A DNA stretch of 64,000 nucleotides, taken from IMG/VR virus record IMGVR_UViG_2571042445_000002. The stretch is one strand, 5' to 3'. Under the pieces are notes generated by a model. It was not told the origin of the DNA and did not search any database. It worked only from the letters and a program-made list of their open reading frames with translations. The DNA comes from a virus (Duplodnaviria; Heunggongvirae; Uroviricota; Caudoviricetes). Made by a program: the position numbers and the translations under genes. Below, piece by piece: positions 2,401-60,662 of the stretch (positions within the stretch are counted from its first letter, which is position 1; each line of letters begins with the position of its first letter).

Positions 2401-2409
2401 GAGGTCACA

Positions 2410-3252
2410 ATGCAGAATAACTGGCTAAAAGAGCGTCTGACGCAATTTAAACAGGATTCTAAATTGTGGGCCGCCTTTGTTGATACGATTCAGGACGTGT
2501 GGAATGAATCGGTTGAACCTATTCTCACGCGAATAAGCAACCGTAAATCGTTTTTCACAATGGCAAGGGAGGATATGGACACTCGCATTGCTGAATATGG
2601 TCGTTTCTTTGTTATCACAGAAACGGACAAAACACGCAGGCCAATGCTATTAGCTCAACGACTGGATGAGGTGCACTTCAAAGGAACAGTAAGGCCGATA
2701 GAGCAAACGTTCTGGCGTGAATTTGGCACAATCCCCGTCTCATGGGAACCTTTGTATGCGCCTGTCGATACAGAAAAACATCCCTATGGTTCATTCTTCG
2801 CGACTGCAAATGAAATACCGACTGCTCAGGCACAATATGGTGAGTTTTTCCTGACATCCAGAGGGCTGGTTGTCGTCAACCAAAATAAGCTGTATCGAGC
2901 TTATGATAGCGATGACAGAGACGTTGCTGTACAGAAGCTACTTGCTGATTTTGATACGGTTATAGCGCCGCTATTGCCATTGCATATCGTGTTTGATGGT
3001 GTTTCTTTCCAGTTGAGCGCAACATTGCCGGAAATGGCGGAGATCCTGAATTGCTTATCTGCGGAAGTGTCCTTTATTGAGGGGGTGTACACGACGCAAG
3101 AGATGGTCGATGAACTATCTATTAGCGATACGATCATTCAATTAGACGGCATCCAGTTCGCAGGAAGGCCAGACCGGACGACGGAAAGAGTGCTTCATCT
3201 CGATGAACTCCCGCTCGACGCCTGGGCGCTGGATTATAATTTTGCACCTTAG
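2410..3252 (+). CDS. putative tail/baseplate protein
   Basis: 280 aa, follows baseplate J-like gene, followed by strong hairpin. Confidence 0.3.
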   Translation: MQNNWLKERLTQFKQDSKLWAAFVDTIQDVWNESVEPILTRISNRKSFFTMAREDMDTRIAEYGRFFVITETDKTRRPMLLAQRLDEVHFKGTVRPIEQTFWREFGTIPVSWEPLYAPVDTEKHPYGSFFATANEIPTAQAQYGEFFLTSRGLVVVNQNKLYRAYDSDDRDVAVQKLLADFDTVIAPLLPLHIVFDGVSFQLSATLPEMAEILNCLSAEVSFIEGVYTTQEMVDELSISDTIIQLDGIQFAGRPDRTTERVLHLDELPLDAWALDYNFAP

Positions 3253-11570: not shown

Positions 11571-11935
11571 AAATATCAGTAACGGAGCGCCTTAGCTTAG
11601 GCAAAGAACTGTCTGAGCTGATGTCTGCGCAAAAAAGCGCGACTGCGGTACAACGTGTCACTATTGGCGTGCGGATAGTTGAAGTGATGATGAAGCTGGG
11701 GCTTGGTTCATCGAATAATCCAGCACAACAGCAAGAAGAGGAAGTGCAACCGGCGGCACAAGAAACGCCTAAAATTGTTGCTGACTTCCTTAGTGGTGCA
11801 TTTACTAAATCATCACAAATGGAGTTCATCGATGCTTTGAGAGGCATATCTCAATATGTTGGTGAATTTTTGACACTCGACCAGGCCAAAGAACAGACCG
11901 TAAACTGGGTTTCAGCTAACGGGTATGCAGCGTAA
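11564..11935 (+). CDS. hypothetical protein (DdrA-like position)
   Basis: 123-aa ORF overlapping the upstream gene end. Confidence 0.25.
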   Translation: MVKISVTERLSLGKELSELMSAQKSATAVQRVTIGVRIVEVMMKLGLGSSNNPAQQQEEEVQPAAQETPKIVADFLSGAFTKSSQMEFIDALRGISQYVGEFLTLDQAKEQTVNWVSANGYAA

Positions 11936-12026
11936 AAGAGAGGGGCAGAATGCCCCTTTCTTCTTAAAATAGTCACCGAAATAACACACTTTTTACACTG
12001 CCTTTTTTACAGAAAGGTGGTTAATT

Positions 12027-13412
12027 GTGACTCAAAACGTAACATCAGCACTTCTGGCCGCAGCGAACATTGAGGGGGTTATCGCTGTGGTGTCATCTCT
12101 TGAAAAGCAAGAGACGAAGTTGGGGCGTAGCAGCTATGTCGTCACCAGCAAAGGCGACGAAGTTAAAACAGCGTTCAAGGTTATTGATGCCAAAAAGCTC
12201 ATCATTTCTAACAACCTGGACGGAAGTATAAATCCGTCATTTCCGGAGGAACTCCAGCCTCGCGATCGCACCCGACTGTCAAGTAAGCTCCAGGTTAACC
12301 GTATCGCCGCCAATTTACGCCCGGCACAACTCACTGATTCGGGTATGAGTAGTCATGGTTCCCCGATTGTTGGTCCGGATAATGTCGTTGAGTCTGGTAA
12401 TGGTCGAAGCATGGGAATCTGGCGTGCTTATGAACAAGGGCAGGCTGAAGATTACCGACAATATCTTATCGATCACGCTAAAGAGTTTGGCCTTAATCCC
12501 GAAGACGTCAGGGCAATGGTGATGCCTGTACTGGTTCGCGAGCGCCTCACTGACGTTGATCGTGCTCAATTTGCACGCGACTCAAACATCAGCGATCTGC
12601 AAGAGATGGCTGCAAGTGAGAAAGCGTATGCGGATGCGCAATTTCTCACTGAGAGCGTCATGGCGCTATTTAATCCTTCAGATGATGGAAATCTACTGGC
12701 GCGGTCCAATGATGCGTTTATTCGTGCGTTTTTGCACGAAATAGGTGATACCGCGACGGCAGGTTTGCTTACAGCCGATGGACGTCCAACGAAACAGCTT
12801 ATCGATCGCATTCAGAATGCGATTTTTGCCAAAGCCTATAAGGATGAGCGACTTGTTCGGCTTGTGGCGGAAGAACCGGATCCGGAAATGCGCAATATCC
12901 TGACCGCGCTTAATACAGCGGCCAGTGACTTTGCGCAAATGCAGTCGATTTCTGGCGATGCACATCATGATGCTGTAACTGGTCTGGTTGATGGTATAGA
13001 GCAGGTGAACGGTCTGGATAAACAGGCTATAGCAGCACTCCAGGACGCGATTAACCTTGTTCGTGAAGCCAAAGACAACGGTCAGGCAGTGGAAGAGGTG
13101 ATAGCCCAGCGCGGACTCTTCGGTGATAGCACGCCGGAAGCTGAGGCGTTGGCGCTATTCATCGTGGCAAATAATCGAAGCGCGAAGCGCATGGGGGCTG
13201 CATTCAAAAAAATGGCACAAAAAATCAACGACGAACTGATTCATAAACAGCAGGCGTTGGGCGATATGTTCGGCGGTGGAGATGTCGATCTACGTAGTAT
13301 TTTGACCGCTGTTTCTAATGAGATTGAACTGGAACATGGAGAGGGGAAAGGGCTTAACTTCACGATGTTCGAAGCCAAAACAGAACAAAGCGATTTTGGG
13401 CTGGAAACCTGA
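12027..13412 (+). CDS. hypothetical protein (DdrB-like position)
   Basis: 461 aa, GTG start with AAAGGTGG RBS; last gene of the operon before a terminator. Confidence 0.3.
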   Translation: MTQNVTSALLAAANIEGVIAVVSSLEKQETKLGRSSYVVTSKGDEVKTAFKVIDAKKLIISNNLDGSINPSFPEELQPRDRTRLSSKLQVNRIAANLRPAQLTDSGMSSHGSPIVGPDNVVESGNGRSMGIWRAYEQGQAEDYRQYLIDHAKEFGLNPEDVRAMVMPVLVRERLTDVDRAQFARDSNISDLQEMAASEKAYADAQFLTESVMALFNPSDDGNLLARSNDAFIRAFLHEIGDTATAGLLTADGRPTKQLIDRIQNAIFAKAYKDERLVRLVAEEPDPEMRNILTALNTAASDFAQMQSISGDAHHDAVTGLVDGIEQVNGLDKQAIAALQDAINLVREAKDNGQAVEEVIAQRGLFGDSTPEAEALALFIVANNRSAKRMGAAFKKMAQKINDELIHKQQALGDMFGGGDVDLRSILTAVSNEIELEHGEGKGLNFTMFEAKTEQSDFGLET

Positions 13413-18350: not shown

Positions 18351-18539
18351 GAATGTATGATTTATATCGTCACTAAAAAACAGCATCTGATAAAAATTCT
18401 GTTGATCTTTCTAATGTTCAGGCTTATATTCATGCCGTCGTAGCAAATTCTGCGACCGGGTTTAGCAGCCTGAATGTTAGTGCGGACAACCGCAGATATC
18501 CGATATTGCGGTATTTTTGTGTCCGTAAAACCGCGTTAC

Positions 18540-18677
18540 GCCCAAATTATGGTGGGGCGTGATGGGGAGGCTTCGGCCTGCTGGTTTCACTAACGCCAGT
18601 CTGCTAACCCCGTCACGTCCTGCCACCTGTTTAGCAGCGGGTAGCAGGTTGTTAAACCTGTTAGTGAGGCCGTAACT
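18540..18677 (+). ncRNA. candidate c4-like antisense RNA / structured leader
   Basis: hairpins (e.g. gaggc-UUCG-gcctg) in the leader just upstream of icd-like gene. Confidence 0.25.
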
Positions 18678-18902
18678 ATGGTTAATGCCAATCCTTGCTC
18701 ACGTCCAGAATTCATCTGGCGTTTTCACTCCCTGCAAAAACACTGCGATCACTTCGCAATTGCCGCAACTGAAAAAGAAGCCCGTTCTCTGATCCCTGAT
18801 CAGTATGGCGTTCTCACTGGTCGTTTCTCTACTTCCCCACAACCAAACACCAATCCCTGGTATCGCAATATTACCAATCCCGGCATTGCGGAGGCTCACT
18901 GA
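18678..18902 (+). CDS. Icd-like small protein
   Basis: 74 aa, stop overlaps the ant start (TGATG); paralogue at 59521. Confidence 0.4.
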   Translation: MVNANPCSRPEFIWRFHSLQKHCDHFAIAATEKEARSLIPDQYGVLTGRFSTSPQPNTNPWYRNITNPGIAEAH

Positions 18903-19609
18903 TGGATATCTGCATTCTCGAAAAGCCATCAATGACCAGCATTGAGATCGCGGAGCTGGTGGGAAAACGTCATGACAATGTGAAACGCACTATTGAGACA
19001 TTAGACAAAGGTGGCGTTATTGTTCGTCCTCAAATTGAGGTTTTCGAAAAAATCAATAACTTAGGACTACGACGTAGTGTTGAGGCTTACGTCTTCGAAG
19101 GCGAGCAAGGCAAGCGCGATAGCATTATCGTCGTCGCGCAGCTCTCTCCCGAATTCACCGCCCGGCTGGTGGACCGCTGGCGCGAACTGGAAGAACAAGT
19201 ACGCCAGCCGTTGACCGAAATAGAGATGATCGCTGCAATGGCTGCAAATGCAGTTCAGCAGCAAAAGCGGCTTCATGTTGTTGAGTCAAAGGTTAGCCAG
19301 GTTGCTGAAACCGTCGAGCAGATCAAGAAGGGCAACATGCCAGAAGGTTACATTGGCTATCGTCAGTTAGCGGCGAAATGTGGCCTGACTGAAGCCAAAT
19401 GCCGTAACCTGGTCAACGCTAACCGGATTCCCACAGATACGCATGAGTTTTTGACGCCAGAGGGGGTATTGTCGCGTCGTACTATTGTGGCCTTATCTCC
19501 CTTCATGAATGCCTTTACCCTGATGATGTCGGAGGCTGAACACCGAGGAAAACGCTGGTATCACCCAAGGATGGGACAATTCCAGGTGATCGGTTGGGGA
19601 GGCGAGTGA
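18902..19609 (+). CDS. ant: antirepressor, Rha-family N-terminal domain protein (split form)
   Basis: MTSIEIAELVGKRHDNVKRTIE matches the Rha/antirepressor N-terminal signature. Confidence 0.55.
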   Translation: MDICILEKPSMTSIEIAELVGKRHDNVKRTIETLDKGGVIVRPQIEVFEKINNLGLRRSVEAYVFEGEQGKRDSIIVVAQLSPEFTARLVDRWRELEEQVRQPLTEIEMIAAMAANAVQQQKRLHVVESKVSQVAETVEQIKKGNMPEGYIGYRQLAAKCGLTEAKCRNLVNANRIPTDTHEFLTPEGVLSRRTIVALSPFMNAFTLMMSEAEHRGKRWYHPRMGQFQVIGWGGE

Positions 19610-19806
19610 TGGACATCATGCAGGCGGTAAAAAAAATCAGGGAAGGACAGGCTGAAGTGTGCCGCCGTAAAGCATGGAGTGTTGGTATATGGATCTGGCC
19701 TGATAATTGCTCTACTACCGGATGGTTTTGTATTAATGGATGCCAGATCCGGGAAGTCGATTTATCGACGGCGGATGCAGTCGGTAATGATTGGATCGTA
19801 ACTTGA
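19609..19806 (+). CDS. antirepressor C-terminal domain as a separate coupled ORF
   Basis: ATG at 19609 overlaps upstream stop (TGATG), GGAGG seven nt upstream; product aligns to the C-terminus of the fused Ant at 59736-60662. Confidence 0.4.
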   Translation: MDIMQAVKKIREGQAEVCRRKAWSVGIWIWPDNCSTTGWFCINGCQIREVDLSTADAVGNDWIVT

Positions 19807-19814
19807 AGTGTGAT

Positions 19815-19840
19815 GCCCCGGCCTGGCCGGGGCTTTTTCA
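19815..19840. terminator. bidirectional terminator candidate
   Basis: gccccgg-cctgg-ccggggc followed by TTTTT, between convergent genes. Confidence 0.55.
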
Positions 19841-20329
19841 TGCCTCATTAGTTGAGGTTGCTGCGTCGCCGACAGGTAACAGAACTGTATTGCGTGGTTC
19901 GCCAGCAGGCCAGCGATAGCCAGACACTCTTGATGTTGGGAATGCGCGAATATTAACAGCATCCCCCTGGTTCCCACCCAAGACAAGCAGATCGCCATTG
20001 GCGCGGCGTCCGACAACAAAGCCTACATGCCCACCGCCTGCGCGAGTAAATACAACGATACATCCGTATGCCGGTGTATCTAATTTCTCGCCCCAATCCA
20101 GATAGGATTTTGCCGACTCAAATCTTGTTGAGCGGATGCCTACACGTTCCAGCATTGCACCGACAAATGCTGCGCACCACGGCGTTTCATCGTCTTTAAT
20201 TCCACCGCGCTTAATATCCCGCCAGAACTGGACGATCTCAGGATTGTGTTTCGCTCCTTTTATTTCGGTGACTCCAATATTTTTACGGGCTTCAATAAGC
20301 CAGCGAGGTTCATTATTGATCATAATCAT
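19838..20329 (-). CDS. NlpC/P60- or CHAP-like cell-wall peptidase family protein (TIGR02594-like)
   Basis: 163 aa with conserved Cys (PWCAAFV) and His (GGHVGFV) spaced as in papain-like amidases. Confidence 0.45.
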   Translation of the reverse strand: MIMINNEPRWLIEARKNIGVTEIKGAKHNPEIVQFWRDIKRGGIKDDETPWCAAFVGAMLERVGIRSTRFESAKSYLDWGEKLDTPAYGCIVVFTRAGGGHVGFVVGRRANGDLLVLGGNQGDAVNIRAFPTSRVSGYRWPAGEPRNTVLLPVGDAATSTNEA

Positions 20330-21126: not shown

Positions 21127-24100
21127 TTGGACAAAATAATTGATTCAATTAGCCAGGCCACCAGCATTGGGGCGCTGATTGAAATTGTTAGTCGGTTGCA
21201 TAAACCGCGAGCTGTAGTGACCTTTGGCGTTAAGAAAGTCGATGGCGTCAGTATTCAGAAAACACGCCGGGCAGCAAACAACGCCGCAGTAAATCTTCTT
21301 AATTCCCTTCCGCCTGGCTTCGATGGGGCGAAATTAACTGACGAACAGCGCCAGATTCTTGCCGGGTATACCGGTGAAGGCGGCCTGACAGATGGTGAGG
21401 GCAGCCAATACGAATACTATACGCCACAGTTTATGGCAGAAGGTATATGGGATCTCTTCGGCGACTACGGTATTGATAGCGGTCACGTACTGGAACCGTC
21501 AGCAGGCACAGGTATTTTCCAGGAGACAAAACGGCAGGGCATGATAATGACCAGTGCCGAACTGTCTCCGATCTCCGGTCGAATAAACCAGCTTTTGCAC
21601 CCGGAAGATGATGTGAATATCGGGGCGTTTGAGGCGCTGGCGGCGAAAGATGCAATGTATGACCACGCAGTTGGTAACGTACCGTTTGGCGAAGGGCGTT
21701 CCGGCGTCGCCGGGCTTGATCCGGCATATGCAAACGAGAAGAACGTTGGCAATTATTTTGTGCTGCGCACGATCGACAAGGTTAAGCCTGGTGGACTAAT
21801 TGTATTGGTGGTGCCGAATGGCATGACCGATGGTACGAAATACAAAAAATTGCGCGATAAAGTCAGCCGTAAAGCGGAATTTTTGGGCGCGCATCGTATG
21901 CCTTCTGGTACGTTCAGCGAATCCGGTACAGATACCGTGGTGGACGTATGGGTATTGCGTAAACACCCGGAAACCTTCCTGGAGATGATCCCCGACACGG
22001 ATGATGCAACGCTCAAATCGGCAAACGTCCTTTGGGATACCTTCCTCAAAGGGAAATGGTTTACAACCGAAGGGAAGCGATTTGTTTACGGCGACATGGA
22101 ACGCACCAGCTTCCGCAATACCCTGGTGGTGAAAAAGGACGGTCGTGTATCCAATGAGTCGATGAAAACCGCGTTATCATGCCGCTTTGAAAGCCGTATT
22201 AATTGGGATTTGCTCGGAGTAACTACCCAGGCATGGCAGGGCGCAAAAGTAGGGGATAAGCGTCTTGTAGGCGGTATCTGGCATGAGTTTGATGGCCTGA
22301 AATGGGTTAAGGACACGACAACCAAATCCTCCGCGCTTGATGTAAGTCGATATGGTGTTTCGACGTTTGGCGATCTGCAGATCGCGTTCCAGTCAACAAA
22401 CGGGATTCTGGCTTTGTCATGGGACCAGATATCGGCGATCGCGTCCGACTATCCATCGGTTGTCAGTGATGAAGTGGCAGCAATGATTCGCTTTGCTGGC
22501 AAACAGCGAGAAAAAGACAGGGAGCGCGTTATGCGCGGTGCGTTGATAGGGCAGTTGATCAACAAGGCACTTGATTTGCGTAACCTGGGGGTGAACGTTG
22601 ATGACAAACTGGCAGATGCATCCCGCCTGGCGGCAGCAGAAGTTGCGAAGTATGGACCACCGCACGCGATTAAGCTGAATGGGCTTGCTGAAGCTGGCGC
22701 TAAAAACTGGATGACGTTCACTGGCAATGTGAAACAGGATGGTTCCACTTCTGACCTTCTGGCAGGGCGACTTGATGTAACGGATGGTGCTGCCGGTATT
22801 GACTTTACACGTCCGGAACAAGTGATAGCACATCTTTTCAGTGATGTAGCCCTTAATCCTATAACGCTGGGCGACTTTCGTGAGGCGTTTGCTGGTGAAC
22901 TGCCAGAGGACGACGACGCGGCCCTTGAATACCTGGCGAAATTTGATGATATCGCTATTGATGGGTATGGCTGCCTGCTGCCGATGGACCGCGCCACCAG
23001 CGGCGATATTGTAACCAAAACAGCATTGCTGGTGGGCTGGCGTGATGCATCAACAGGTGAGCAGAAAGCGAACTTTGAGCGTCAGTTGGCGAAAATCGAA
23101 GAGAAACGCATTTTCACGCCACTAAATAAAGTCACCGTTAATCTGAACGCCCGCTGGCTGGATCGCCGCTTGATAAAAGAGTTCCTGGCAGAGCAGGGCT
23201 ATGACGAGTTTAAGTACACTGAACCTGATCTGAAGGTCGTCGATGGCATTCTGGTATCTCCGGACGATTACGAAGGTAAGGACGGGGTATTTACCGGCTA
23301 TCAGCTACGAACCGTAAACGGCAAAAACGGGAATGAGTTCAAGAAGGCCAACAATAAAGACGGCTTCCTGAACCAGTTAGAAAACTACCTGAACGGTGTT
23401 AAACCGCGTGGGCAGAACGCTAACGAGTACCTGGATAAAATTGCTCAACTGGAAGTTAGCTTTAACGACTGGTTACGCACCCACCCGCAGGCGGATCAGA
23501 TAGCCCGTGACTATAACGACGCATTCAATGGCTTCATTCCGTTCACGCACTCTAACGCACCGCTTGGCCTGGAAGGGATTAGTGGAAAGCGCATTCCTCT
23601 GACTTATCAGAATGAAGAAGTTCGTCGCTTGTCAGAAGATGGGCGCGGCATCATGGGATTTGGTACCGGGCTGGGTAAAACCACGACCGCGCTTGCGCTT
23701 GAGGCGTATAACTTCGAAACAGGTCGTACTAAACGCACGTGTATTGTTGTTCCGAAGGCGGTTTATCAGAACTGGTATCACGAGGCACAGAGCTTCTACA
23801 GTGCTGATGCCTTCGCCAATATGATGTTTATCGGTCTGGATGAAGTTCGTGATGACAGCGGAAATATTCTGACCGCTCCGGTGCTTGATGAAAATGGCGA
23901 ACCCCGCCTCGACAGTAACGGGCAGCCTCTTACCAGAAATGTTGTGAAAGAGTCCGCCAGCGCCGTTATCGTTCAGCGCATGAACATGATCCCGTCGTCA
24001 AATTGGCGAACGGTCATCATGACAAAAGAACAATTCGCGTCTATCCCGCTACGAGAAAAAACCATCGAGGAGAACTCACAGCAAGCTGTCTTTAATGCTG

Positions 24101-27100
24101 TGGAAATGGGGCGTCTTGACCTGGCGTCTGGTAAACACCGTGATGCGCAGAAGAAGAACAAGATTAAGGATCAGGCCGCGAATACCGGTACAACGAAGAA
24201 GCAGAATATCCCGTACTTTGAGGATATGAACTTCGATAGCGTGATAGCCGACGAGGGGCATAACTACCGCAACTCCTTTAATGCCGGGCGTGAAGCGGGA
24301 CAACTGGCATATTTGCCTAACCCGGCAGTATCCAAGATGGCCCGCGACATGGCTGTAAAAGCTGCGTACATGATGAAACGCAACAACGGGCGTGGTGTAG
24401 TCATGCTGACGGCAACACCGCTGGTGAACAGTCCGATTGATGCCTTCAACATGCTGTCTACTGTCATTCCGCAGGAAGAGTGGATGCGCATGGGCATCAT
24501 TACGCCTGATGATTTCGTTCGTGTGTTTGGTAAAACAGCCACAGTTCAGGTCCAGAAAATTTCCGGGGAAGTGGAAGAGAAGCAGGGGCTGGTTGGCTTC
24601 CAGAACCTTGATGGCCTGCGTGGTATTTTCCATCGCTGGACTACTCTGAAGACTGCTGCGGACGTCGGGGCGACGGTTAAAATCCCTGATATTGTCGAGA
24701 ATACCTTGCAGATCCCGATGACAGGGGAGCAGGAGGCTGCTTATGAAGAGCTTCGTAAGCGTGCACAGGAGTTAAGTAGTAAAGATGCGCTGACGGTTGA
24801 TGAAAACGGGCATATCACAAACGAAAAACCGGATGATTTCATCTTCTCCATCATCCGCGACATGGATAAGGTTGCTATAGATCCGGATCTGTATGCCAGT
24901 GCGATTACATTCCAGTTCCCCGTTGAGCTTGCAGACAAGGTAAAAGCTATTGCTGATGCCCTGCCAAAAGTAGCTGGCGGTAAAGTGGCAGATGATGCAG
25001 ACGAGGCCGAAGAAGACGGCGCTGGTGGGCTGGTTAGTACGCGCACCAGTAAGGTAGTGAAGACCACCTTTAGTGAACATCCGGCGCATGTTGAAATACG
25101 TGCCAGCATTGAACTGGAAGCTGAAATACTGAAGGCCATTGCTGCCGCCGGGATTGATATGCAGCAGGTATCACACCCAATCCCGCCGAAGTATGCCGCG
25201 CTGATCGAAAACCTTCGTGAAGGTCTGAAGAACGGTAAACAAATTGTCTTCATTGATGAAAAAGCCCAGCACCAGAAGCTGCGCCGTATTATCGCCAGTG
25301 CACTGCAAATGCCGGAGCAGGAGATAGGCATTATCAATGCGACGACCGTTAGCCAGGCTGGCGGCATCAAGCTGAAGAAGGTGAATAAGCCGACTGAACC
25401 TACTCCGAATAAAAATGGTGAATACAAAGAAGGGGCATGGGAAACCTACTACAGCAAACTTGCCCAATATGAGGATTATCTCTCAGCTAAAAATGATGCT
25501 GGCCTTGAGGGTATGGAAGGCATTGCCGCCGACTATAACGAAGGGCGCACGCGCATAATTATCTGTAACAAGAAGGCTGAAGTAGGTATTAACCTGCATA
25601 TCGGGACAACCGATATCCACCACCTGACACTACCCTGGACACCAGCCAGTATCGACCAACGAAATGGGCGCGGTGCGCGCGTAGGTTCACCGCAAGAGAA
25701 GGTCAATGTTCACTACTATTGTGGCAAAGGCACATTCGACGACTTCCGTCTGGATACGCTGAAACGTAAGAAAGACTGGATCAAGATGGTGATGACCTCC
25801 GACATGTCAGAGATCGCCAATGGTGATGCGGATGATGCTGATGAACGCGCCATTATGCTGGCGGCAAACCCGGAAGAACGCCGCGCAATCATGGCTCGCC
25901 AGGCGCAAGAGCGTGAAGAACGTCTGAAACTGAAAGCACAGCGCGAGGCCAACAATGCTCTCGATATCTACCTGAAAGCGGCAAACGCCGCTGGAAAAGA
26001 TATCGGCATGATGGAGACAGAACTGAAAAGCGCGATGGAACAGATAGAGTATTACCAGCGAAATCTTGACGACCTGATAAAAGCGGGTACGAACAGGAAT
26101 GGGCAAAAATTCGCGCTTGAGCAGTTGAGTAGCTACAGAAAACGTGCGCGGGTGCTGCGGTTTGCGATCACCAGGGCAAAAGACGCGGATACCATAATGA
26201 AACGCTCTCGTGGTGATGTGGAGCGCGCTATTAAGTCTGGTGTGCTGGATATCAGTATCGATGTTATTCAGAACCCACAGGAATATATGCGCACTGACAA
26301 GAATATCCTGTTGCATAAAGGTAGTTATTACCGTGCAGTCATTGATGATCGCGAAACAACAGCGATTGTCCGGGTGGAAAAAATTGACGGTGAAAAAGCA
26401 CAATACCTCTGCCGTATCGCCTGGCTGGATAGAGCAAGTCGTTACGCTCGAGCACCGGGGTCAATCGTTACATTGCCGTTTGACTCTGTGATTGAAGCGG
26501 TAACTTTTGAAGAGGGGGTAGCTGAATCGCGCGCAACGGCTGCGCGTGGTGTTCAGTGCCACCAGCTATCAACAATACTTACTCGCGATCAGTTCTATGA
26601 TGCTATTCGCAATGGGGTAATGAATGTTATTGCTGGTAAACCTGGTAATGCATGGGGCGGTGGGTCAGCTATTAAATACTGGGCATATCGCACAGATGAT
26701 GGTCAGATCGCGCTGTCATCGGCCTATGATGGCGTGATAGGCCAAAAAATCGGGCGAGCATCGGATATAGCACCTGAACGATGGATATATCCAGATGGCA
26801 ACGATGAGGCGCTGAAGCGTGAAGTGGCAAAAATACAAGCCAGTGATAACCCGCTGAATATCGTGGACGGCGAGGGATTCCTCCAGGCATTGTATGGGTA
26901 TGATTACATCCAGGGAATGCAGGCATGGGGCGCACAGGCAACGATGGATGATGTTGTCCAGGAGTTCGAAAACTGGATGGCTGGGCGTGGTCTGTCAGGT
27001 CGTTCGCTTAATAAAGTCACTTCTGAAGATATTCTTAGCTTGTTCCGCAAACCGTCCGGAGAAGGTCTGGAATCATTCTGGAGGACCGTGCTGGCATACC

Positions 27101-27963
27101 GTTTATTCAAGGGCAGAATGAAAGCCTTTAGCAATATCGATGATATTGAACGGATGTTTAATCAGGTCAAGATCGCCAAAATTAAGACGAAGATCGAAAA
27201 AACACGTTCTGCGCTGGTGGCCTGGCGCGATGCATTGTTTGAGCAATATAAATCACTCAGTGATGCAGATGGATGGGCGGCATTGGAACAGTTGGCGAAT
27301 AATGGGGTAGATGGAGCGAAACTCGCCATAGTCCAGGCTGATAACCCCCTGGAATCACCGGCAGCACAGTGGATTAAGGTGGGGGCTGTCATCAATGCAT
27401 TTGATGAAAAACACATTAGTAAGGACGATTTTGCTGATGCTGTTTCTGTTAATCGCCTGGTAGAAATGGCTACCCGCCGCGCCCGTGAGTTGAAAGACGG
27501 TGACTATGTGAATGAGTTGCCGGATGCGCTCAAATCAGCAACGTGGCAAGACTATGTATCGCTGAAAAACGGCGGGGCCACCGAATCAGAGATCGCGGAA
27601 AGGCTTGAACAGGCTGAAAGCAAAAGAGAAGAGCAGGCGGCAGTGGCTGAAGCCAGAGCTGATGAAGCGGCGAATGATGACTATATCATTGTGGTTAATG
27701 ATAAGCCGATTCGCGCTAAGGCGCGTGTTCGCGGGCGCTGGTGGAGTGTCAGCGAGGACGTCGGTGCGGTTTATCTCATTGCCGACCAACCAGGTTCCTC
27801 GACAATACGGAACGCCAAAGACGCGATTAAGAAGATTGGCGGGCGTTTCTGGAATTTTGAAGCAAACCCGGTTGCTGATGTGAACTTTGACCGTCCTGCA
27901 TGGATGGTATCTACGCGTTACTCGGTAGATGAACTGCGTAAAATAATCGCCGATGCGGCCTAA
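21127..27963 (+). CDS. darB: DarB-like giant methyltransferase-helicase, putative antirestriction protein
   Basis: 2278 aa, TTG start after GAGGGGGG; MTase-like motifs LEPSAGTGIF and VGNVPFG; SF2 helicase motifs GFGTGLGKTTT, DEGHNYRN, QRNGRGARVG; size near P1 DarB. Confidence 0.65.
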   Translation: MDKIIDSISQATSIGALIEIVSRLHKPRAVVTFGVKKVDGVSIQKTRRAANNAAVNLLNSLPPGFDGAKLTDEQRQILAGYTGEGGLTDGEGSQYEYYTPQFMAEGIWDLFGDYGIDSGHVLEPSAGTGIFQETKRQGMIMTSAELSPISGRINQLLHPEDDVNIGAFEALAAKDAMYDHAVGNVPFGEGRSGVAGLDPAYANEKNVGNYFVLRTIDKVKPGGLIVLVVPNGMTDGTKYKKLRDKVSRKAEFLGAHRMPSGTFSESGTDTVVDVWVLRKHPETFLEMIPDTDDATLKSANVLWDTFLKGKWFTTEGKRFVYGDMERTSFRNTLVVKKDGRVSNESMKTALSCRFESRINWDLLGVTTQAWQGAKVGDKRLVGGIWHEFDGLKWVKDTTTKSSALDVSRYGVSTFGDLQIAFQSTNGILALSWDQISAIASDYPSVVSDEVAAMIRFAGKQREKDRERVMRGALIGQLINKALDLRNLGVNVDDKLADASRLAAAEVAKYGPPHAIKLNGLAEAGAKNWMTFTGNVKQDGSTSDLLAGRLDVTDGAAGIDFTRPEQVIAHLFSDVALNPITLGDFREAFAGELPEDDDAALEYLAKFDDIAIDGYGCLLPMDRATSGDIVTKTALLVGWRDASTGEQKANFERQLAKIEEKRIFTPLNKVTVNLNARWLDRRLIKEFLAEQGYDEFKYTEPDLKVVDGILVSPDDYEGKDGVFTGYQLRTVNGKNGNEFKKANNKDGFLNQLENYLNGVKPRGQNANEYLDKIAQLEVSFNDWLRTHPQADQIARDYNDAFNGFIPFTHSNAPLGLEGISGKRIPLTYQNEEVRRLSEDGRGIMGFGTGLGKTTTALALEAYNFETGRTKRTCIVVPKAVYQNWYHEAQSFYSADAFANMMFIGLDEVRDDSGNILTAPVLDENGEPRLDSNGQPLTRNVVKESASAVIVQRMNMIPSSNWRTVIMTKEQFASIPLREKTIEENSQQAVFNAVEMGRLDLASGKHRDAQKKNKIKDQAANTGTTKKQNIPYFEDMNFDSVIADEGHNYRNSFNAGREAGQLAYLPNPAVSKMARDMAVKAAYMMKRNNGRGVVMLTATPLVNSPIDAFNMLSTVIPQEEWMRMGIITPDDFVRVFGKTATVQVQKISGEVEEKQGLVGFQNLDGLRGIFHRWTTLKTAADVGATVKIPDIVENTLQIPMTGEQEAAYEELRKRAQELSSKDALTVDENGHITNEKPDDFIFSIIRDMDKVAIDPDLYASAITFQFPVELADKVKAIADALPKVAGGKVADDADEAEEDGAGGLVSTRTSKVVKTTFSEHPAHVEIRASIELEAEILKAIAAAGIDMQQVSHPIPPKYAALIENLREGLKNGKQIVFIDEKAQHQKLRRIIASALQMPEQEIGIINATTVSQAGGIKLKKVNKPTEPTPNKNGEYKEGAWETYYSKLAQYEDYLSAKNDAGLEGMEGIAADYNEGRTRIIICNKKAEVGINLHIGTTDIHHLTLPWTPASIDQRNGRGARVGSPQEKVNVHYYCGKGTFDDFRLDTLKRKKDWIKMVMTSDMSEIANGDADDADERAIMLAANPEERRAIMARQAQEREERLKLKAQREANNALDIYLKAANAAGKDIGMMETELKSAMEQIEYYQRNLDDLIKAGTNRNGQKFALEQLSSYRKRARVLRFAITRAKDADTIMKRSRGDVERAIKSGVLDISIDVIQNPQEYMRTDKNILLHKGSYYRAVIDDRETTAIVRVEKIDGEKAQYLCRIAWLDRASRYARAPGSIVTLPFDSVIEAVTFEEGVAESRATAARGVQCHQLSTILTRDQFYDAIRNGVMNVIAGKPGNAWGGGSAIKYWAYRTDDGQIALSSAYDGVIGQKIGRASDIAPERWIYPDGNDEALKREVAKIQASDNPLNIVDGEGFLQALYGYDYIQGMQAWGAQATMDDVVQEFENWMAGRGLSGRSLNKVTSEDILSLFRKPSGEGLESFWRTVLAYRLFKGRMKAFSNIDDIERMFNQVKIAKIKTKIEKTRSALVAWRDALFEQYKSLSDADGWAALEQLANNGVDGAKLAIVQADNPLESPAAQWIKVGAVINAFDEKHISKDDFADAVSVNRLVEMATRRARELKDGDYVNELPDALKSATWQDYVSLKNGGATESEIAERLEQAESKREEQAAVAEARADEAANDDYIIVVNDKPIRAKARVRGRWWSVSEDVGAVYLIADQPGSSTIRNAKDAIKKIGGRFWNFEANPVADVNFDRPAWMVSTRYSVDELRKIIADAA

Positions 27964-32515: not shown

Positions 32516-32591
32516 TGATGGTGTAGCTCAGTGGTAGAGCAGTTGGCTGTTAACCAACTGGTCGGTGGTTCGAATCCACTCACCATCGCCA
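32516..32591 (+). tRNA. tRNA-Asn (anticodon GTT)
   Basis: 76 nt; acceptor gatggtg/caccatc, anticodon loop CTGTTAA, T-loop TTCGAAT, 3' CCA encoded. Confidence 0.85.
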
Positions 32592-32593
32592 AT

Positions 32594-32669
32594 GCCGGTT
32601 TAGCTCAGTTGGTAGAGCGCCTGCCTTGTAAGCAGGATGTCAGCGGTTCGAGTCCGTTAACCGGCACCA
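32594..32669 (+). tRNA. tRNA-Thr (anticodon TGT)
   Basis: 76 nt, 2 nt after tRNA-Asn; anticodon loop CTTGTAA; T-loop TTCGAGT; CCA encoded. Confidence 0.85.
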
Positions 32670-32671
32670 AC

Positions 32672-32760
32672 ACAACAGGTAAGGGTATTTTGCGACGTCG
32701 GAGATCGCCGAGCTTGGCAGAGGGTTCGAATCCCTACGAAGTACCCTTACCGTTGTGATG
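32672..32760 (+). ncRNA. tRNA-like hairpin element or pseudo-tRNA
   Basis: 15-bp stem acaacaggtaagggta/tacccttaccgttgt enclosing a T-arm-like GGTTCGAATCC; no full cloverleaf. Confidence 0.3.
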
Positions 32761-32857
32761 AATGCACAGGCTGATGTGCCGCAACTACAGTAGTGCGCGC
32801 TTTGCGGGGCTTGCTACAACCCTGTGTCGGAGTTCAGCACCGACCATCACAATCACT

Positions 32858-32944
32858 GGAGAGTAGGGAGCATGGTGCTCAAGCGGTCTTGAAAACCGTC
32901 CCATTGCGCAAGCGATGATGGTTCGATTCCATTACTCTCCGCCA
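32858..32944 (+). tRNA. tRNA-Ser-like (anticodon TGA), long variable arm, atypical D-arm
   Basis: acceptor ggagagt/actctcc, anticodon loop CTTGAAA, long variable arm, T-loop TTCGATT, CCA encoded. Confidence 0.5.
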
Positions 32945-33200
32945 GCGCAACGTTAAGAGTATTTGGCTAATTAAGCGAATGCCGGAAGCAGAACCGGATC
33001 ACCAAATGCTCTTACCATTGCGGTGAATGCGGCTAAGCGCACGCGGAACAGTTAAAACAGTAAAGGTGGTCTTTTTACTGGCGTAACGAGAATCCATAAG
33101 TGATCCGGCGTTAATTGTTAACTGGTTAACGTCACCGGGAGGCACCCGGCACCGCAACCTAACAGCAATGGCGTTTTGTCTTAAAAGGTGGCTGCAAGTG

Positions 33201-33329
33201 ATGGATTTTTGGGCGTTTGCCGATAAAAACCCGGAGTGGACATTATTGTTTCTGCTGGTGGTTGCATACGGGGTAGAGCAAGCGGCAAAAGCCTTACGCG
33301 GTTCTGGCAAAAAGCGTAAGCGTAATTAA
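33201..33329 (+). CDS. small membrane peptide (42 aa)
   Basis: ATG ORF MDFWAFADKNPEWTLLFLLVVAYGVEQAAKALRGSGKKRKRN, one TM helix plus basic tail; below the ORF-track size cutoff. Confidence 0.25.
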   Translation: MDFWAFADKNPEWTLLFLLVVAYGVEQAAKALRGSGKKRKRN

Positions 33330-33338
33330 CAGTAATCT

Positions 33339-33414
33339 GGCCCTTTAGCTCAGTGGTTAGAGCGGGCGACTCATAATCGCACGGTCACCGGTTCAAGTCC
33401 GGTAGGGGCCACCA
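33339..33414 (+). tRNA. tRNA-Ile2 (anticodon CAT, lysidine type)
   Basis: 76 nt, nearly identical over D-arm and anticodon arm to E. coli tRNA-Ile2 as I recall it; CCA encoded. Confidence 0.8.
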
Positions 33415-33866: not shown

Positions 33867-34442
33867 ATGTTAACGGCGAACGATAACGCGTATTCAGAAG
33901 ATGATCTCGTTTTGAGTGACTTTATAGGGCGACGAGAATGCTGGACGCAAAAGCGCGAGGAGCTTTATGCAGCGTTAGTTCGTAAAGGCGTCAACATCGA
34001 AACCGCACAGAACGGTGATATGACAGTGGTAAGTGTTGGACTGCACGGCGTAAGTGTGTCAGCAATCAATCATGAGCCGTACATTGCGTTATCCGAGTCG
34101 ATGGTAAGGTTAGTTAAGTTCCTGAAGTACACAGAAGCGAATAACGTGATCATCGCCAAAAAGAACATCCCGTTCTCATCGGCCTTTTACTGGATGATGA
34201 AGGGGCTTGATGCCCGGCGAACATCATGGCCTAAAGGGAGCTATATATCGATGCTCCGTGGCAGTGTTGGTAGCAAAGAAAAGCTCGTCGAATTCCTGCC
34301 GGAAGAGGCATTCGATATTGTTGAAGGTTGTGATGTGATGGTTATGCCTCGCCTGGTAATGATGAATGGGGATTTACAGGCGCAGACAGACTGGTTTGCA
34401 ACTGGAGTTGATATTATCGCTACTGACTGGGAGGTTTTTTGA
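33867..34442 (+). CDS. DUF2829 (Tad2-like) domain protein with N-terminal extension
   Basis: 191 aa; C-terminal region has the W-x3-G-x3-RR-x2-W-x-G signature (FYWMMKGLDARRTSWPKG) and the DIIATDWEVF end. Confidence 0.4.
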   Translation: MLTANDNAYSEDDLVLSDFIGRRECWTQKREELYAALVRKGVNIETAQNGDMTVVSVGLHGVSVSAINHEPYIALSESMVRLVKFLKYTEANNVIIAKKNIPFSSAFYWMMKGLDARRTSWPKGSYISMLRGSVGSKEKLVEFLPEEAFDIVEGCDVMVMPRLVMMNGDLQAQTDWFATGVDIIATDWEVF

Positions 34443-58720: not shown

Positions 58721-59369
58721 TTAAGTTGAATTGTGAGATTCGCCGTTGTACATTCACAACCGATTGGTACACCGGTCAACTTTTTGAGACAAACCGTTTG
58801 GTTTTTCGTATGATTGCCGCCGCCATACCAATGGCGGTGCAATATAGGTGGCTGAAAAGCCCCCGTTGACTCACGGTGTTCCAACCTTTATTGCGCCGCC
58901 ACCAGACCGTGGAACAGTCGATGGCGGCTCCGAAAGCAAGGAGTCACTACACTATGAACAGCTACTGTCTTTTCCCATCACTCGTTGTCCGCCACTCACG
59001 CGATAATCTGCATTCTTTACTCGCGCTGGGGGTGTCAAAATGACCGTTCGCTACCTCAACTTTCAAATCCAGAACATCACTGGCGGTTGCTATGACTGGT
59101 TTGTCACTCTCGGAAAAGAAGTGATCACCGGAAAGCTGGATGAAGTGAAAGCTAAAGCAATGGCCTACGCCTGCAAGCAAGCCCAAAAGAAGAAAAGAAA
59201 AGCATAAGAAAACACACAGTTGCGCCCTGGCATTATCGTGGGGTATATTTCTACGGCACCTTAGAAAAACGGGTGCCGGGATTGGAACCCCGGATAATGT
59301 CAAAGGCGACACAGACGCCGAACGCGTCTTTTTTTGTGTCATGCCATCGCACAGCCATACTTAGCGTTT

Positions 59370-59520
59370 AGCTCAGAGATCAATGGTAGTGCTGGCTGGG
59401 CTGCCGAAAGGCAGGCCGGTTCCCTTTGACGCCGGTAGTTCCAACCCAGTCAGTGCTACCGCCATTGAGATTGGAACCTCACGCGGTAGCTCCTTAACTT
59501 AGTCAAAGGAGGCTGCCAAT
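59370..59520 (+). ncRNA. candidate c4-like antisense RNA / structured leader (copy 2)
   Basis: hairpins (ctgcc-GAAA-ggcag) upstream of the second icd-like gene. Confidence 0.25.
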
Positions 59521-59736
59521 ATGGCTACTATCCCTACCCCAACTCATTCTGAATTTATCTGGCGTTTCTATTCCTGCCAAAAACACCTGTATATCTGCGT
59601 CATGGCTGCAACCGAAGCAGAAGCGCGCTCATACCTTCCCGAAGAACCCTGCATTTTTGCTGCTCGCTTCACTCTTGATGCGATGGAGATCCTCAATTAC
59701 TGGAATCTGCCAATGAACTGCGTGGAGGTGCACTGA
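59521..59736 (+). CDS. Icd-like small protein (copy 2)
   Basis: 71 aa, shares SEFIWRF...CQKH...AATEAEAR with the copy at 18678; stop overlaps ant start. Confidence 0.4.
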   Translation: MATIPTPTHSEFIWRFYSCQKHLYICVMAATEAEARSYLPEEPCIFAARFTLDAMEILNYWNLPMNCVEVH

Positions 59737-60662
59737 TGAATCTGTCCATCTCTCAAAAAGCGACAATGACCAGTATTGAGATCGCGGAGCTGGTGGGTAA
59801 GCGTCCTGACAACGTTAAACGCACCATTGAACACCTGGCGGAACGGGGCGTAATAACTTTTCCTCAAATTGAGGAAAAGCCCACTGCAGGCCGCCCGGCG
59901 AGCTATTACGTCTTCGAAGGCGAACAAGGCAAGCGCGATAGTATTATCGTCGTCGCGCAGCTCTCTCCCGAATTCACCGCCCGGCTGGTGGACCGCTGGC
60001 GCGAACTGGAGAATGCCAGAGGACCGTTAAAATCAAAAGCCGAAATTCTGGCCGAAATGGCGCAAATGCATCTTGAGCATGAACGCCGGATCAACGCCGT
60101 TAATACCCAGGTAGCCGAAGTATCGGCACAAGTGACCAAAGTCGCTGAAACCGTCGAGCAAATAAAGAAAGGCAATATTCCGGAAGGCTACATTGGCTAT
60201 CGCCAGTTAGCGGCGAAATGCGGCCTGACTGAAGCCAAATGCCGCAACCTGGTCAACGCTTACCGGATCCCCACAGATACGCATGAGTTTTTAACTCCCG
60301 ATGGTTTGCTTGCGAGACGCTCCATTGTGGCCCTGGCCCCCTTCCGGAAAGCCTTTAAGCAGGTTATGTCGGAGGCTGAACCACGCAACAAACGCTGGTA
60401 TCATCCCAGGATGGGGCTATTTCAGGCCATTCACCATCCTGTGCCTGAAAGTCCAAAGGCAAACCTGTCGTTGCATACCGCCAGAGAGAAGATTAAAACA
60501 GGGTATGCAACCGTATGCCGTCGAGCATCCTGGCCTGAAAGTGTCTGGGTATGGCCCGAAAGAGGCTCACGGAAAAACTGGCGCACCTTTCGCGACGGCA
60601 AGATCTGTGCGATTGATTTACAGCCAGAAGATGTAGCAGCGACCGACTGGATTGTTAGTTAA
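59736..60662 (+). CDS. ant: antirepressor, Rha-family (fused form)
   Basis: 308 aa; N-terminal MTSIEIAELVGKRPDNVKRTIE; about 100-bp stretches identical to copy 1. Confidence 0.6.
   Translation: MNLSISQKATMTSIEIAELVGKRPDNVKRTIEHLAERGVITFPQIEEKPTAGRPASYYVFEGEQGKRDSIIVVAQLSPEFTARLVDRWRELENARGPLKSKAEILAEMAQMHLEHERRINAVNTQVAEVSAQVTKVAETVEQIKKGNIPEGYIGYRQLAAKCGLTEAKCRNLVNAYRIPTDTHEFLTPDGLLARRSIVALAPFRKAFKQVMSEAEPRNKRWYHPRMGLFQAIHHPVPESPKANLSLHTAREKIKTGYATVCRRASWPESVWVWPERGSRKNWRTFRDGKICAIDLQPEDVAATDWIVS

Follow-up and report, generated by a model that had tools for sequence, protein, structure and literature searches.

The Roi/Rha-type gene of immunity module 1 and the small ORF behind it are a conserved overlapping gene pair of D6-like phage-plasmids rather than the product of a sequencing error or of a broken gene. 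It is very likely that this is a genuine arrangement of two genes maintained as such, and we think it probable that the module as a whole is a P1-type immI operon in which a complete Roi gene is followed by a coupled gene for an autonomous Tad2-like protein. Within the window (the whole stretch of DNA analyzed, 64,000 nt), the module is laid out as follows.

18402..18430, + strand: sigma-70-like promoter candidate of the immI-type operon (TTGATC-17-TATATT, 9/12 matches, consensus match only)
18424..18476, + strand: c4-a1b1 element with the upstream C4 RNA target sites (Rfam RF03163, 53.9 bits against a gathering score of 46.7)
18545..18630, + strand: C4 antisense RNA (Rfam RF01695, 70 bits against a gathering score of 45)
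18629..18669, + strand: a2/b2 target region, ending in the icd Shine-Dalgarno sequence
18678..18902, + strand: icd-like leader gene, 74 aa (from the ORF list; phrog_1426, E 5.7e-39)
18902..19609, + strand: Roi/Rha-type DNA-binding protein, full length, 235 aa, in the "antirepressor" position
19598..19602, + strand: Shine-Dalgarno sequence GGAGG of the small ORF, within the final Roi codons, with a 6-nt spacer to the ATG
19607..19611, + strand: TGATG stop/start overlap of Roi and the small ORF, invariant in 29/29 loci
19609..19806, + strand: 65-aa Tad2-like (DUF2829-like) small protein, PHROG 7385
19629..19636, + strand: A8 run in codons 7-10 of the small ORF, A8 in 29/29 intact loci
19815..19838, + strand: intrinsic terminator closing the operon, an 8-bp all-GC stem followed by a T run

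The control region has the composition of a P1-type immI locus, with a C4 RNA, a1b1 sites upstream of it, and a2b2 sites downstream at the ribosome-binding site of the leader. The loop sequences of C4 are complementary to both the a1 and a2 sites. The a1 site (18460-18469) recurs as GTTTAGCAGC at 18629-18638 in the a2/b2 region, and GTTAGTG at 18660-18666, which adjoins the GAGG of the icd Shine-Dalgarno sequence, is complementary to CACTAAC at 18588-18594 within C4. The placement of the promoter candidate, upstream of a1b1/C4, is comparable to that of P51 in P1. The leader gene is labelled "Icd-like" in RefSeq and in the D6 annotation, and its junction with the Rha gene (18900-18904) is TGATG too, which suggests that overlap coupling is a design of the whole operon. 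The terminator lies directly 3' of the small ORF and was kept in 9/9 aligned loci; a near-identical hairpin stands behind the fused gene of module 2.

The immI locus of P1 and P7 (c4-icd-ant1/2) resembles module 1 in its C4 RNA, its a1b1 and a2b2 sites, and an icd-like leader overlapping the next gene, and it shares with the window a position adjoining repL. The window's two modules differ in their C4 loop sequences, recalling the heteroimmunity of P1 and P7. However, the protein behind icd in module 1 is of the Roi/Rha type and not P1 Ant1/2; P1, P7, and other P1-like phages matched just nt 1-250 of the query (the stretch with C4 and icd), and the search brought up no homology to Ant1/Ant2. 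Module 1 also has the extra coupled Tad2-like gene, and the element in the window carries two modules. A second precedent is isrK-orf45-anrP of Gifsy-1, where an sRNA-controlled leader ORF likewise has its stop overlapping the start of an antirepressor-like gene, and where translational coupling between leader ORF and antirepressor was demonstrated by experiment (PMC4825925). Gifsy-1 differs from module 1 in that its sRNA activates translation, and no Tad2-like unit is described there (PMC4825925). An isrK match also turned up in module 2 of the window.

A sequence-only reading had placed the end of the Rha-family ORF at 19609 and the start of the next ORF on that same nucleotide, within TGATG, with GGAGG upstream. 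Re-reading of the ORFs bore this out: the Roi/Rha stop codon TGA occupies 19607-19609, the small ORF begins with ATG at 19609-19611 and stops at 19804-19806, and GGAGG at 19598-19602 ends six bases before the ATG. The short ORF, given there as 66 aa, does exist, with a product of 65 aa (66 codons with the stop), and the A8 run, put at 19631-19638, lies at 19629-19636. Roi and the small ORF thus have the arrangement of coupled genes, a stop/start overlap (TGATG) together with a Shine-Dalgarno sequence (GGAGG) inside the upstream gene.

The junction, CGGTTGGGGAGG[C/T]GAGTGATGGACA, and the A8 run were identical in all 29 intact loci sampled from E. coli, E. marmotae, Shigella, Salmonella, phage D6, and IMG/VR contigs. 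Besides phage D6, both occurred in 7 sampled plasmids and 20 IMG/VR contigs, and GGAGG at 19598-19602 was invariant throughout (29/29). By tblastn, the small ORF was detected at an identity of at least 80% in about 110 plasmids, in all but 2 as one uninterrupted piece. Frameshifted alleles were represented by locus L035 (A7) and by proteins P0002, P0003, and P0007, in addition to the broken matches in 2 plasmids. A seeming homologue in plasmid pSa1423-160k (L013) was dropped, the assembly being error-ridden. The A8 run itself is unremarkable, the window having four A runs and two T runs of 8 bases or more, and it is an occasional indel site within the small ORF only, as in the A7 allele.

By comparison with its relatives, the predicted 235-aa upstream protein is full length. 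Its membership in the Rha/Roi family follows from a Pfam Phage_pRha (PF09669) score of 36.6 bits, above the cut-off of 29.9, and from full-length similarity to the 235-aa Roi of PhiR49_2, to which it is 74% identical end to end (over 233/235 residues). It also matched phrog_63, "anti-repressor Ant" (E 3.6e-48), and over residues 67-235 the gene has a pN/pS of 0.075. The label "antirepressor" derives from synteny with P1 ant and from the name of PHROG 63. The lambdoid Roi (HK022/HK97 type, for example that of PhiR49_2) likewise has 235 aa and an N-terminal Phage_pRha domain; unlike the Roi of module 1, it is encoded behind cro, is free of C4 control, ends in QVIGWQR, and has no Tad2-like gene after it. 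The gene of this free-standing lambdoid Roi ends in CAG CGG TGA, without GGAGG, which is encoded by the D6-type tail only.

We are confident that the small ORF encodes an autonomous domain that is a remote homologue of Tad2 (DUF2829). On its own, the small ORF scored 16.9 bits against Pfam PF11195 (E 0.0095), short of the gathering score of 25, and five of the six family members matched PF11195 at E up to 1, the best at 6.2e-5. Alignment of the family by hhalign with four solved Tad2 sequences, obtained via a generic DUF2829 query and the SPO1 genome, gave a P of 1.1e-4 over 62 columns; with the window's own Pfam-positive domain added, the result was a Prob of 92.3% and an E of 5.6e-7 over 61 columns. 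The top nine Foldseek matches in the PDB were all Tad2, and the best match in BFVD was a 66-aa DUF2829 protein (prob 1.0). The family profile found no Tad2 chain among PDB sequences, and NCBIfam returned no useful match. A word-indexed search with the 65-aa ORF recovered near-identical proteins only. Since an exhaustive HMM search of 1.84 billion representatives found 8 proteins, the family is tiny at the sequence level. Two scans of species-representative genomes yielded no relatives, and a second IMG/VR scan found none of the free-standing type.

The small protein shares a predicted topology with the Tad2/DUF2829 sponges (SPO1 gp34.65, ModTad2, and HgmTad2/AcrIIA7), in which an N-terminal helix precedes an antiparallel sheet, followed by a short helix and a strand at the C-terminus. 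Common to both are the motifs G-x-x-v-x-R-x-x-W and D-x-x-a-x-D-W-x-v, and both are small and phage-encoded; compact DUF2829 proteins of 66 aa exist. The counterparts of W25, D79, and D84-W85 of SPO1 Tad2 are invariant in the family. When the ligand contacts of SPO1 Tad2 were mapped, W25 and D79 corresponded to the invariant W23 and D56, with S or P in the place of N26 and V, I, Y, or F in that of W73, so that two of the four main gcADPR-contacting residues are kept. Tad2 homologues of other ligand specificities vary at these positions too. The small protein departs from Tad2 in a central beta2-beta3 loop that is about 20-40 residues shorter, in a CRR motif and extra tryptophans (W28, W30, and W39), in its score below the Pfam threshold, and in its setting, an antisense-RNA-gated immunity operon with a paralogue fused to a DNA-binding protein. 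With this assignment, PHROG 7385 (D6 orf17) and the extension that hundreds of "Rha family transcriptional regulators" carry at the C-terminus gain a testable identity.

The Tad2-like domain was found in three forms: in module 1 as a coupled gene behind Roi, in module 2 fused to it, and in other phage-plasmids alone, directly behind C4. Elsewhere in the window, two further genes encode such domains.

59736..60662, + strand: fused paralogue of module 2, Roi/Rha body, linker, and Tad2-like domain, 308 aa (domain at 60465-60659)
33867..34442, + strand: third Tad2-like protein, 191 aa (Pfam PF11195, E 4.4e-10, 40.4 bits, cut-off 25, residues 103-190)

The short ORF had been said to align to the C-terminus of the fused protein, and it does so over 65/65 residues (244-308 of the paralogue; 35% identity, E 4e-16). 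The 235-aa protein aligns to residues 1-232 at 68% identity. The 308-aa paralogue consists of a Roi unit and a Tad2-like unit joined via a 13-residue linker. The fused type has hundreds of full-length relatives of 301-314 aa. The AlphaFold model of the 308-aa protein is poor past residue 212 (pLDDT <50) and uninformative on the linker and C-terminal domain. The free-standing homologues P0005 and P0006, from other phage-plasmids, lie directly 3' of a1b1 and C4, without an icd or Rha gene; at both, the stretch lying 12-15 nt ahead of the ATG is complementary to the C4 loop. Four "transcriptional regulator" proteins of 81-98 aa (P0011, P0012, P0016, and P0017) were rejected as free-standing genes, being internal-start or remnant calls of the fused type. 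The 191-aa protein has the motifs RR(T/A)SWP(K/E)G and ATDW in common with the immI-linked domains.

The earlier description of module 1 as an antirepressor split in two is misleading, as the 235-aa protein is complete and the short ORF is in all likelihood the gene of an autonomous Tad2-like domain. Of the two causes proposed for the split, a functional two-protein arrangement gains support from the identical junction in 29/29 intact loci and from the annotation of two genes in D6 and RefSeq. A sequencing or mutational frameshift does not: no single indel restores the fused frame, the C-terminal domains are merely 35% identical, and the upstream protein stops exactly where the free-standing lambdoid Roi stops. 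It is extremely improbable that the split is an artificial frameshift introduced into one continuous gene through faulty sequencing or assembly. Homopolymer errors do occur nearby (A7 in L035), but the A8 run comes after the stop codon and is therefore irrelevant to the split, and the idea is refuted by comparative data, the junction being identical in assemblies made independently by many laboratories, from many hosts and on many platforms, with phage D6 among them. We also give very little credence to programmed -1 ribosomal frameshifting or stop-codon readthrough yielding a fused Roi-Tad2-like protein beside the 235-aa product. Relative to Roi, the small ORF does read in the -1 frame, a G-rich GGGGAGG precedes the stop, and a fused paralogue exists. 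However, a TGA closes the small-ORF frame 6 nt before the ATG in 21/29 loci and leaves no room to shift, the junction has no X XXY YYZ slippery heptamer, and its RNA is less structured than shuffled controls (z +1.39), with no structure predicted; a ribosome reading past the TGA would reach a TAA six codons later. A decaying, non-functional fission remnant, persisting because the D6-like clade is young, is improbable, although several values suit it. The pN/pS of the small ORF is 0.68-0.80, indistinguishable from 1 (p 0.37), and 21 of its 28 variant sites are non-synonymous; with constraint this weak and a synonymous diversity of only 0.06, ORF integrity in a young clade is modest evidence of function. 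Under neutrality the chance of remaining stop-free is about 0.24 (about 5% of substitutions create stops), and frameshifted alleles occasionally occur. Against decay, neither the start codon nor the Shine-Dalgarno sequence nor the stop overlap varies, the GGAGG tail is missing in free-standing Roi, and the ORF is intact in about 108/110 plasmids. All residues common to relatives of 35-40% identity are kept (I10, G13, C18, R19, R20, W23, W28, P31, D56, D61, and W62), and the non-synonymous changes are not scattered but cluster in predicted pocket-forming loops (positions 24-27, 45-46, 51, and 57). For annotation practice, a "hypothetical protein" behind a Rha gene does not call for a frameshift flag.

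Taking the pair as two coupled genes, module 1 would be a P1-type immI operon of a D6-like phage-plasmid, in the order promoter, a1b1, C4, a2/b2, icd-like leader, Roi/Rha-type regulator, small gene, and terminator. Its three genes would be chained through TGATG stop/start overlaps, the last provided with its own GGAGG, so that the 65-aa protein may be made by ribosomes just off the Roi gene. Because these ribosomes would arrive from Roi, the protein would not appear until C4 no longer blocks the ribosome-binding site of icd. For the coupling and C4-gating steps, we draw on the sequence and on what is established for P1 and Gifsy-1.

Lytic and temperate phages are known to encode Tad2-family sponges in early genes that stand on their own; here a very divergent, compact Tad2 branch appears wired into the immI operons of widespread E. 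coli/Salmonella phage-plasmids. Our leading guess, held tentatively, is that the small protein is a C4-gated sponge that sequesters a nucleotide immune signal at the lytic switch. If the domain does bind immune nucleotides, this would be an anti-defence function that stays off in the lysogen and comes into play with the lytic switch, or else a link between immune signalling and induction. Against a sponge, the counterparts of N26 and W73 of SPO1 Tad2 are not conserved, and because the element already has a canonical Tad2-like protein (33867-34442), further sponges would need another specificity or timing. The same two observations would suit the Tad2-like unit being instead an accessory module of Roi/antirepressor, for tetramerisation, repressor binding, or ligand sensing, working as a covalent part in module 2 and as a non-covalent partner in module 1, which we consider possible but doubtful. 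In its favor, the domain is always tied to C4-controlled immunity operons and is Roi-fused in hundreds of variants, the fused C-terminal domain is under clear purifying selection (pN/pS 0.16), coupling would yield near-equimolar synthesis with Roi, and Tad2 proteins are homotetramers (10.1101/2023.05.01.538930). Nonetheless, free-standing homologues sit behind C4 with no Roi/Rha gene in the operon, and lambdoid Roi proteins function without a Tad2-like domain. It is unlikely, though conceivable, that the Tad2-like unit acts, instead of or besides being a sponge, as a sensor of a host immune second messenger (a Thoeris/CBASS/Pycsar-type nucleotide) and, joined to the Roi-type antirepressor or produced along with it, links host alarm to the lysis-lysogeny switch of the prophage. 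A D6-like phage-plasmid with such a sensor would induce, or stay put, once host defences fire, and the coupled, fused, and alone-behind-C4 forms would be variants of one C4-gated signal-binding module.

Three chained ORFs follow the C4 control region of module 1, one of the two P1-type immI-like regions of the element, and TGATG forms both of the junctions between them:
18678-18902, icd-like leader gene, 74 aa, ORF 1 of the chain
18902-19609, Rha-family (Roi) gene, 235 aa, ORF 2 of the chain
19609-19806, small ORF, 65 aa, ORF 3 of the chain

An ORF check bore out the sequence-only reading that the Rha-family ORF ends at 19609 and that the small ORF starts at the same base, with GGAGG upstream (19598-19602, six bases from the ATG). 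The product is 65 aa long rather than the 66 aa proposed, and the A8 run placed at 19631-19638 lies at 19629-19636, one of six homopolymers of at least eight bases in the window. The proposed match to the C-terminal end of the module 2 fusion protein (308 aa) was also recovered: the entire small ORF aligns with residues 244-308 (35% identity, E 4e-16), and the 235-aa protein aligns with residues 1-232 (68% identity).

The split had been read as either a functional two-protein arrangement or a sequencing or mutational frameshift. The same two genes are annotated in phage D6, as orf18 "Ant" and orf17 "hypothetical", and a 708-nt gene overlapping a 198-nt gene by one base was found in 7/7 sampled plasmids, which spanned identities of 97% down to 92% and came from E. 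coli, E. marmotae, Shigella, and Salmonella. The addition of 20 IMG/VR contigs brought the comparison to 29 loci, in all of which the 25-nt junction is CGGTTGGGGAGG[C/T]GAGTGATGGACA and the A8 context is unchanged. By tblastn, the small ORF was detected at 80% identity or more in approximately 110 plasmids, as an uninterrupted single piece in all except two. One IMG/VR contig (L035) has A7 instead of A8, which frameshifts the small ORF, and a few truncated versions of the protein exist in databases; the A run thus occasionally acquires an indel, real or technical, within the small ORF. As it lies downstream of the Roi stop codon, it is irrelevant to the split. Alignment of the two copies at the DNA level, the check which had been proposed, revealed no single indel that would restore the fusion; module 1 has nothing that corresponds to the fused form's linker (HHPVPESPKANLS), and the two regions differ in length by 16 nt. 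The 29 junctions, the D6 annotation, the plasmids, and the module alignment contradict an artefact or a recent frameshift.

Nor is the module 1 gene truncated, as an antirepressor split in two would be, since it gives a full-length match to the Roi protein of lambdoid phage PhiR49_2, also 235 aa, with 74% identity from residue 1 to ...FQVIGW. The PhiR49_2 gene terminates in QVIGWQR* (CAG CGG TGA), followed by a hairpin, and the D6-type gene in QVIGWGGE* (GGA GGC GAG TGA TG), such that the Shine-Dalgarno sequence is present only where a coupled gene follows. Judged from these alignments, the upstream 235-aa protein is complete, and the 308-aa paralogue is most aptly seen as Roi with an added domain. 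Residues 1-66 of Roi, the winged-helix N-terminus (18902-19100), are mosaic among plasmids, with blocks of unrelated sequence, and the remaining gene is highly conserved; pooled pairwise pN/pS is 0.58 (pS 0.41) in this mosaic HTH region versus 0.075 (pS 0.18) in residues 67-235. In some fused paralogues an ORF6N domain is annotated instead of Rha. The mosaicism and the ORF6N variants suggest that DNA-binding specificity is swapped.

Programmed frameshifting to a fusion of Roi and the small ORF was also considered and is unlikely. Relative to Roi, the small ORF occupies the -1 frame, and in the T variant of the junction, carried by 21 of the 29 loci, that frame has a TGA two codons upstream of the ATG. 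No slippery heptamer was found at the junction, and the RNA of 19560-19660 has less structure than its shuffled counterparts (z +1.39). Readthrough of the TGA would hit a TAA six codons downstream.

The query region matches E. coli plasmid NZ_CP085065 at 100% identity and phage D6 at 90.8%, from which we take the window to be part of a D6-like, P1-type phage-plasmid. Searches with Rfam revealed two immI-type control regions in the window:
18424-18476, c4-a1b1 element, module 1
18545-18630, C4 RNA, module 1
59256-59334, isrK-type match, module 2
59379-59466, C4 RNA, module 2

Module 2 matches isrK at the place where module 1 matches c4-a1b1. The C4 loop and target sequences differ between the modules (18424-18680 versus 59256-59520), the a sites being GTTTAGCAGC in module 1 versus GATTGGAACC in module 2, and the b sites GTTAGTG versus GTCAAAGG. 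By these sequences the modules look like a heteroimmune pair within a single element. D6-like plasmids have previously been noted to contain two c4/icd regions (PMC6799933).

The small ORF belongs to PHROG 7385, whose model also hits the fused module 2 protein at its C-terminus. Its Pfam match to Tad2-like/DUF2829 is full-length but sub-threshold (16.9 bits versus a cut-off of 25), and 5/6 family members gave such a match (best E 6.2e-5). A three-sequence AlphaFold model (mean pLDDT 78.5) comprises a helix, four strands, a short helix, and a strand. When this model was searched against the PDB with Foldseek, the best nine matches were all Tad2 structures, and in BFVD a DUF2829 protein of 66 aa from Pectobacterium phage CBB ranked first (probability 1.0, TM 0.64), ahead of several that bear the name Tad2-like. 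Profile-profile comparison of the immI-linked family with four solved Tad2 sequences gave P 1.1e-4 over 62 columns. Another gene of the window exceeds the Pfam threshold:
33867-34442, + strand, 191-aa Tad2-like protein, 40.4 bits

The domain occupies residues 103-190 of this protein, behind an N-terminal half of approximately 100 residues, and the RefSeq name of the protein is "MW1434 family type I TA system toxin". The motifs RR(T/A)SWP(K/E)G and ATDW are common to it and the immI-linked domains, and with its domain joined to the Tad2 set, hhalign gave 92.3% probability (E 5.6e-7, 61 columns). The small ORF is thus very probably a remote Tad2 homologue, albeit one below the formal Pfam cut-off, and with the 191-aa protein the element has three Tad2-like domains.

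In SPO1 Tad2, gcADPR is held by W25, N26, W73, and D79 (10.1101/2023.05.01.538930). Residues of SPO1 Tad2 correspond to the immI-linked family as follows:
W25: W23, invariant
N26: S or P
W73: V, I, Y or F
D79: D56, invariant
D84-W85: D61-W62, invariant

The ligand pocket is therefore only partly conserved. As different Tad2 homologues bind quite different ligands (PMC12393519), this argues neither for nor against nucleotide binding.

The family is very small, with eight proteins recovered when 1.84 billion representatives were searched exhaustively with an HMM, and occurs in three architectures:
coupled behind Roi, in module 1 of D6-like elements
fused to Roi, in module 2, with hundreds of 301-314-aa variants in E. 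coli and Salmonella plasmids of ~90 kb
free-standing, as P0005 (96 aa; found on a Raoultella plasmid and four further contigs) and P0006 (68 aa), each placed immediately after a c4-a1b1 element and C4 RNA

At one free-standing locus (L010) the C4 loop TTTCTTGAGTG has its complement in CACTCAAGAAA, 12 nt 5' of the ATG, and at another (L009) the same loop is complementary to ACTCAAG, adjoining the Shine-Dalgarno sequence, indicating that C4 can control a Tad2-like domain as its only payload. P0005 has an N-terminal extension that aligns with the fused form's linker, a hint that the free-standing gene descended from a fusion. The free-standing gene is the only ORF behind a1b1 and C4 in L009 (3752-4291), L010 (3746-4207), and L011 (481-687), which are other ~90-kb phage-plasmids (Raoultella ornithinolytica and metagenomic contigs); icd and Rha genes are absent from the free-standing loci, and in L010 and L011 a 65-aa NikA-like ORF then follows. 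In the IMG/VR contigs L049, L050, L051, L059 (about 2256-3198), L052, and L061, the fused module 2 gene is frameshifted inside the Roi body. Four broken copies have a common break after Roi residue 201, giving a 122-codon ORF with the Tad2-like domain; the broken copies may be inherited fission events or pseudogenes.

A promoter-like site and a terminator flank the module 1 operon:
18402-18430, promoter-like site, would start the operon transcript
19815-19833, terminator, would end the operon transcript

One transcript would extend from the former to the latter. By analogy with P1, C4 RNA made from this transcript would pair with a2 (18629-18638) and b2 (18660-18666), the latter adjoining the icd Shine-Dalgarno sequence. 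Pairing would block icd translation and, via coupling, would silence all genes downstream as well; with the block lifted, ribosomes would move from icd to Roi to the small ORF across the two TGATG overlaps. At the related Gifsy-1 isrK-orf45-anrP locus, experiments have demonstrated that translation of the antirepressor is coupled to a leader ORF (PMC4825925). Coupled translation would result in the small protein being made together with Roi at the switch to lytic development.

Our leading guess, a tentative one, is that the small protein sequesters an immune nucleotide. That it is instead an oligomerisation, partner-binding, or sensing module for Roi we hold to be only slightly less likely. 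The small ORF could also be a decaying remnant. Pooled pairwise pN/pS is 0.68 for the split small ORF (pS 0.06), 0.16 for the fused C-terminal domain (pS 0.37), and 0.39 for icd (pS 0.20), and single-site variants of the small ORF (21 non-synonymous versus 7 synonymous) give a ratio of 0.80, indistinguishable from 1 (p 0.37). With a ratio indistinguishable from 1, an intact ORF across a young clade lends function only modest support. More telling are the start signals, which do not vary, the conservation of all residues common to relatives of 35-40% identity, the Shine-Dalgarno tail specific to the D6-type Roi gene, and the existence of free-standing homologues; weighing both sides, we regard decay as improbable. 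The variable positions (24-27, 29, 34, 45-46, 51, and 57) are mainly in the loops and helix forming the Tad2 pocket, and the variation pattern fits either relaxed or diversifying selection. Replacement changes cluster at residues 27, 29, 34, 45, and 57, with at most three alleles each, and synonymous diversity (0.06; 19609-19803) is approximately threefold below that of the adjacent Roi gene (0.18).

Public records already annotate two genes here (D6 orf17/orf18, RefSeq), and we found no literature that connects Tad2 or DUF2829 to Rha, to antirepressors, or to immI operons. The assignment of an identity to orf17/PHROG 7385 appears to be new, as do the recognition of the C-terminal extension carried by module 2 "Rha family regulators" as a divergent Tad2-like domain, the predicted role of the domain as a C4-gated payload in three architectures, and the occurrence of three Tad2-like domains in a single element.

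A CHAP/TIGR02594 peptidoglycan-hydrolase-like gene (19838-20329, - strand) converges on the operon terminator. After it, a gene at 21127-27963 (+ strand) encodes a DarB-like SNF2/methylase protein of 2278 aa, with a putative anti-restriction function of the P1 type, such that the Tad2-like gene lies near another putative counter-defence gene. The tRNA cluster at 32517-33411 contains three tRNAs by Rfam and four by RefSeq in the identical plasmid (Asn, Thr, Ser, and Ile). The identical plasmid also has a gene annotated as a TnpB/InsQ RNA-guided endonuclease, beside a HicA toxin gene and inserted amid head and portal genes (~11580-12750, - strand, by correspondence with NZ_CP085065 57859-59238).
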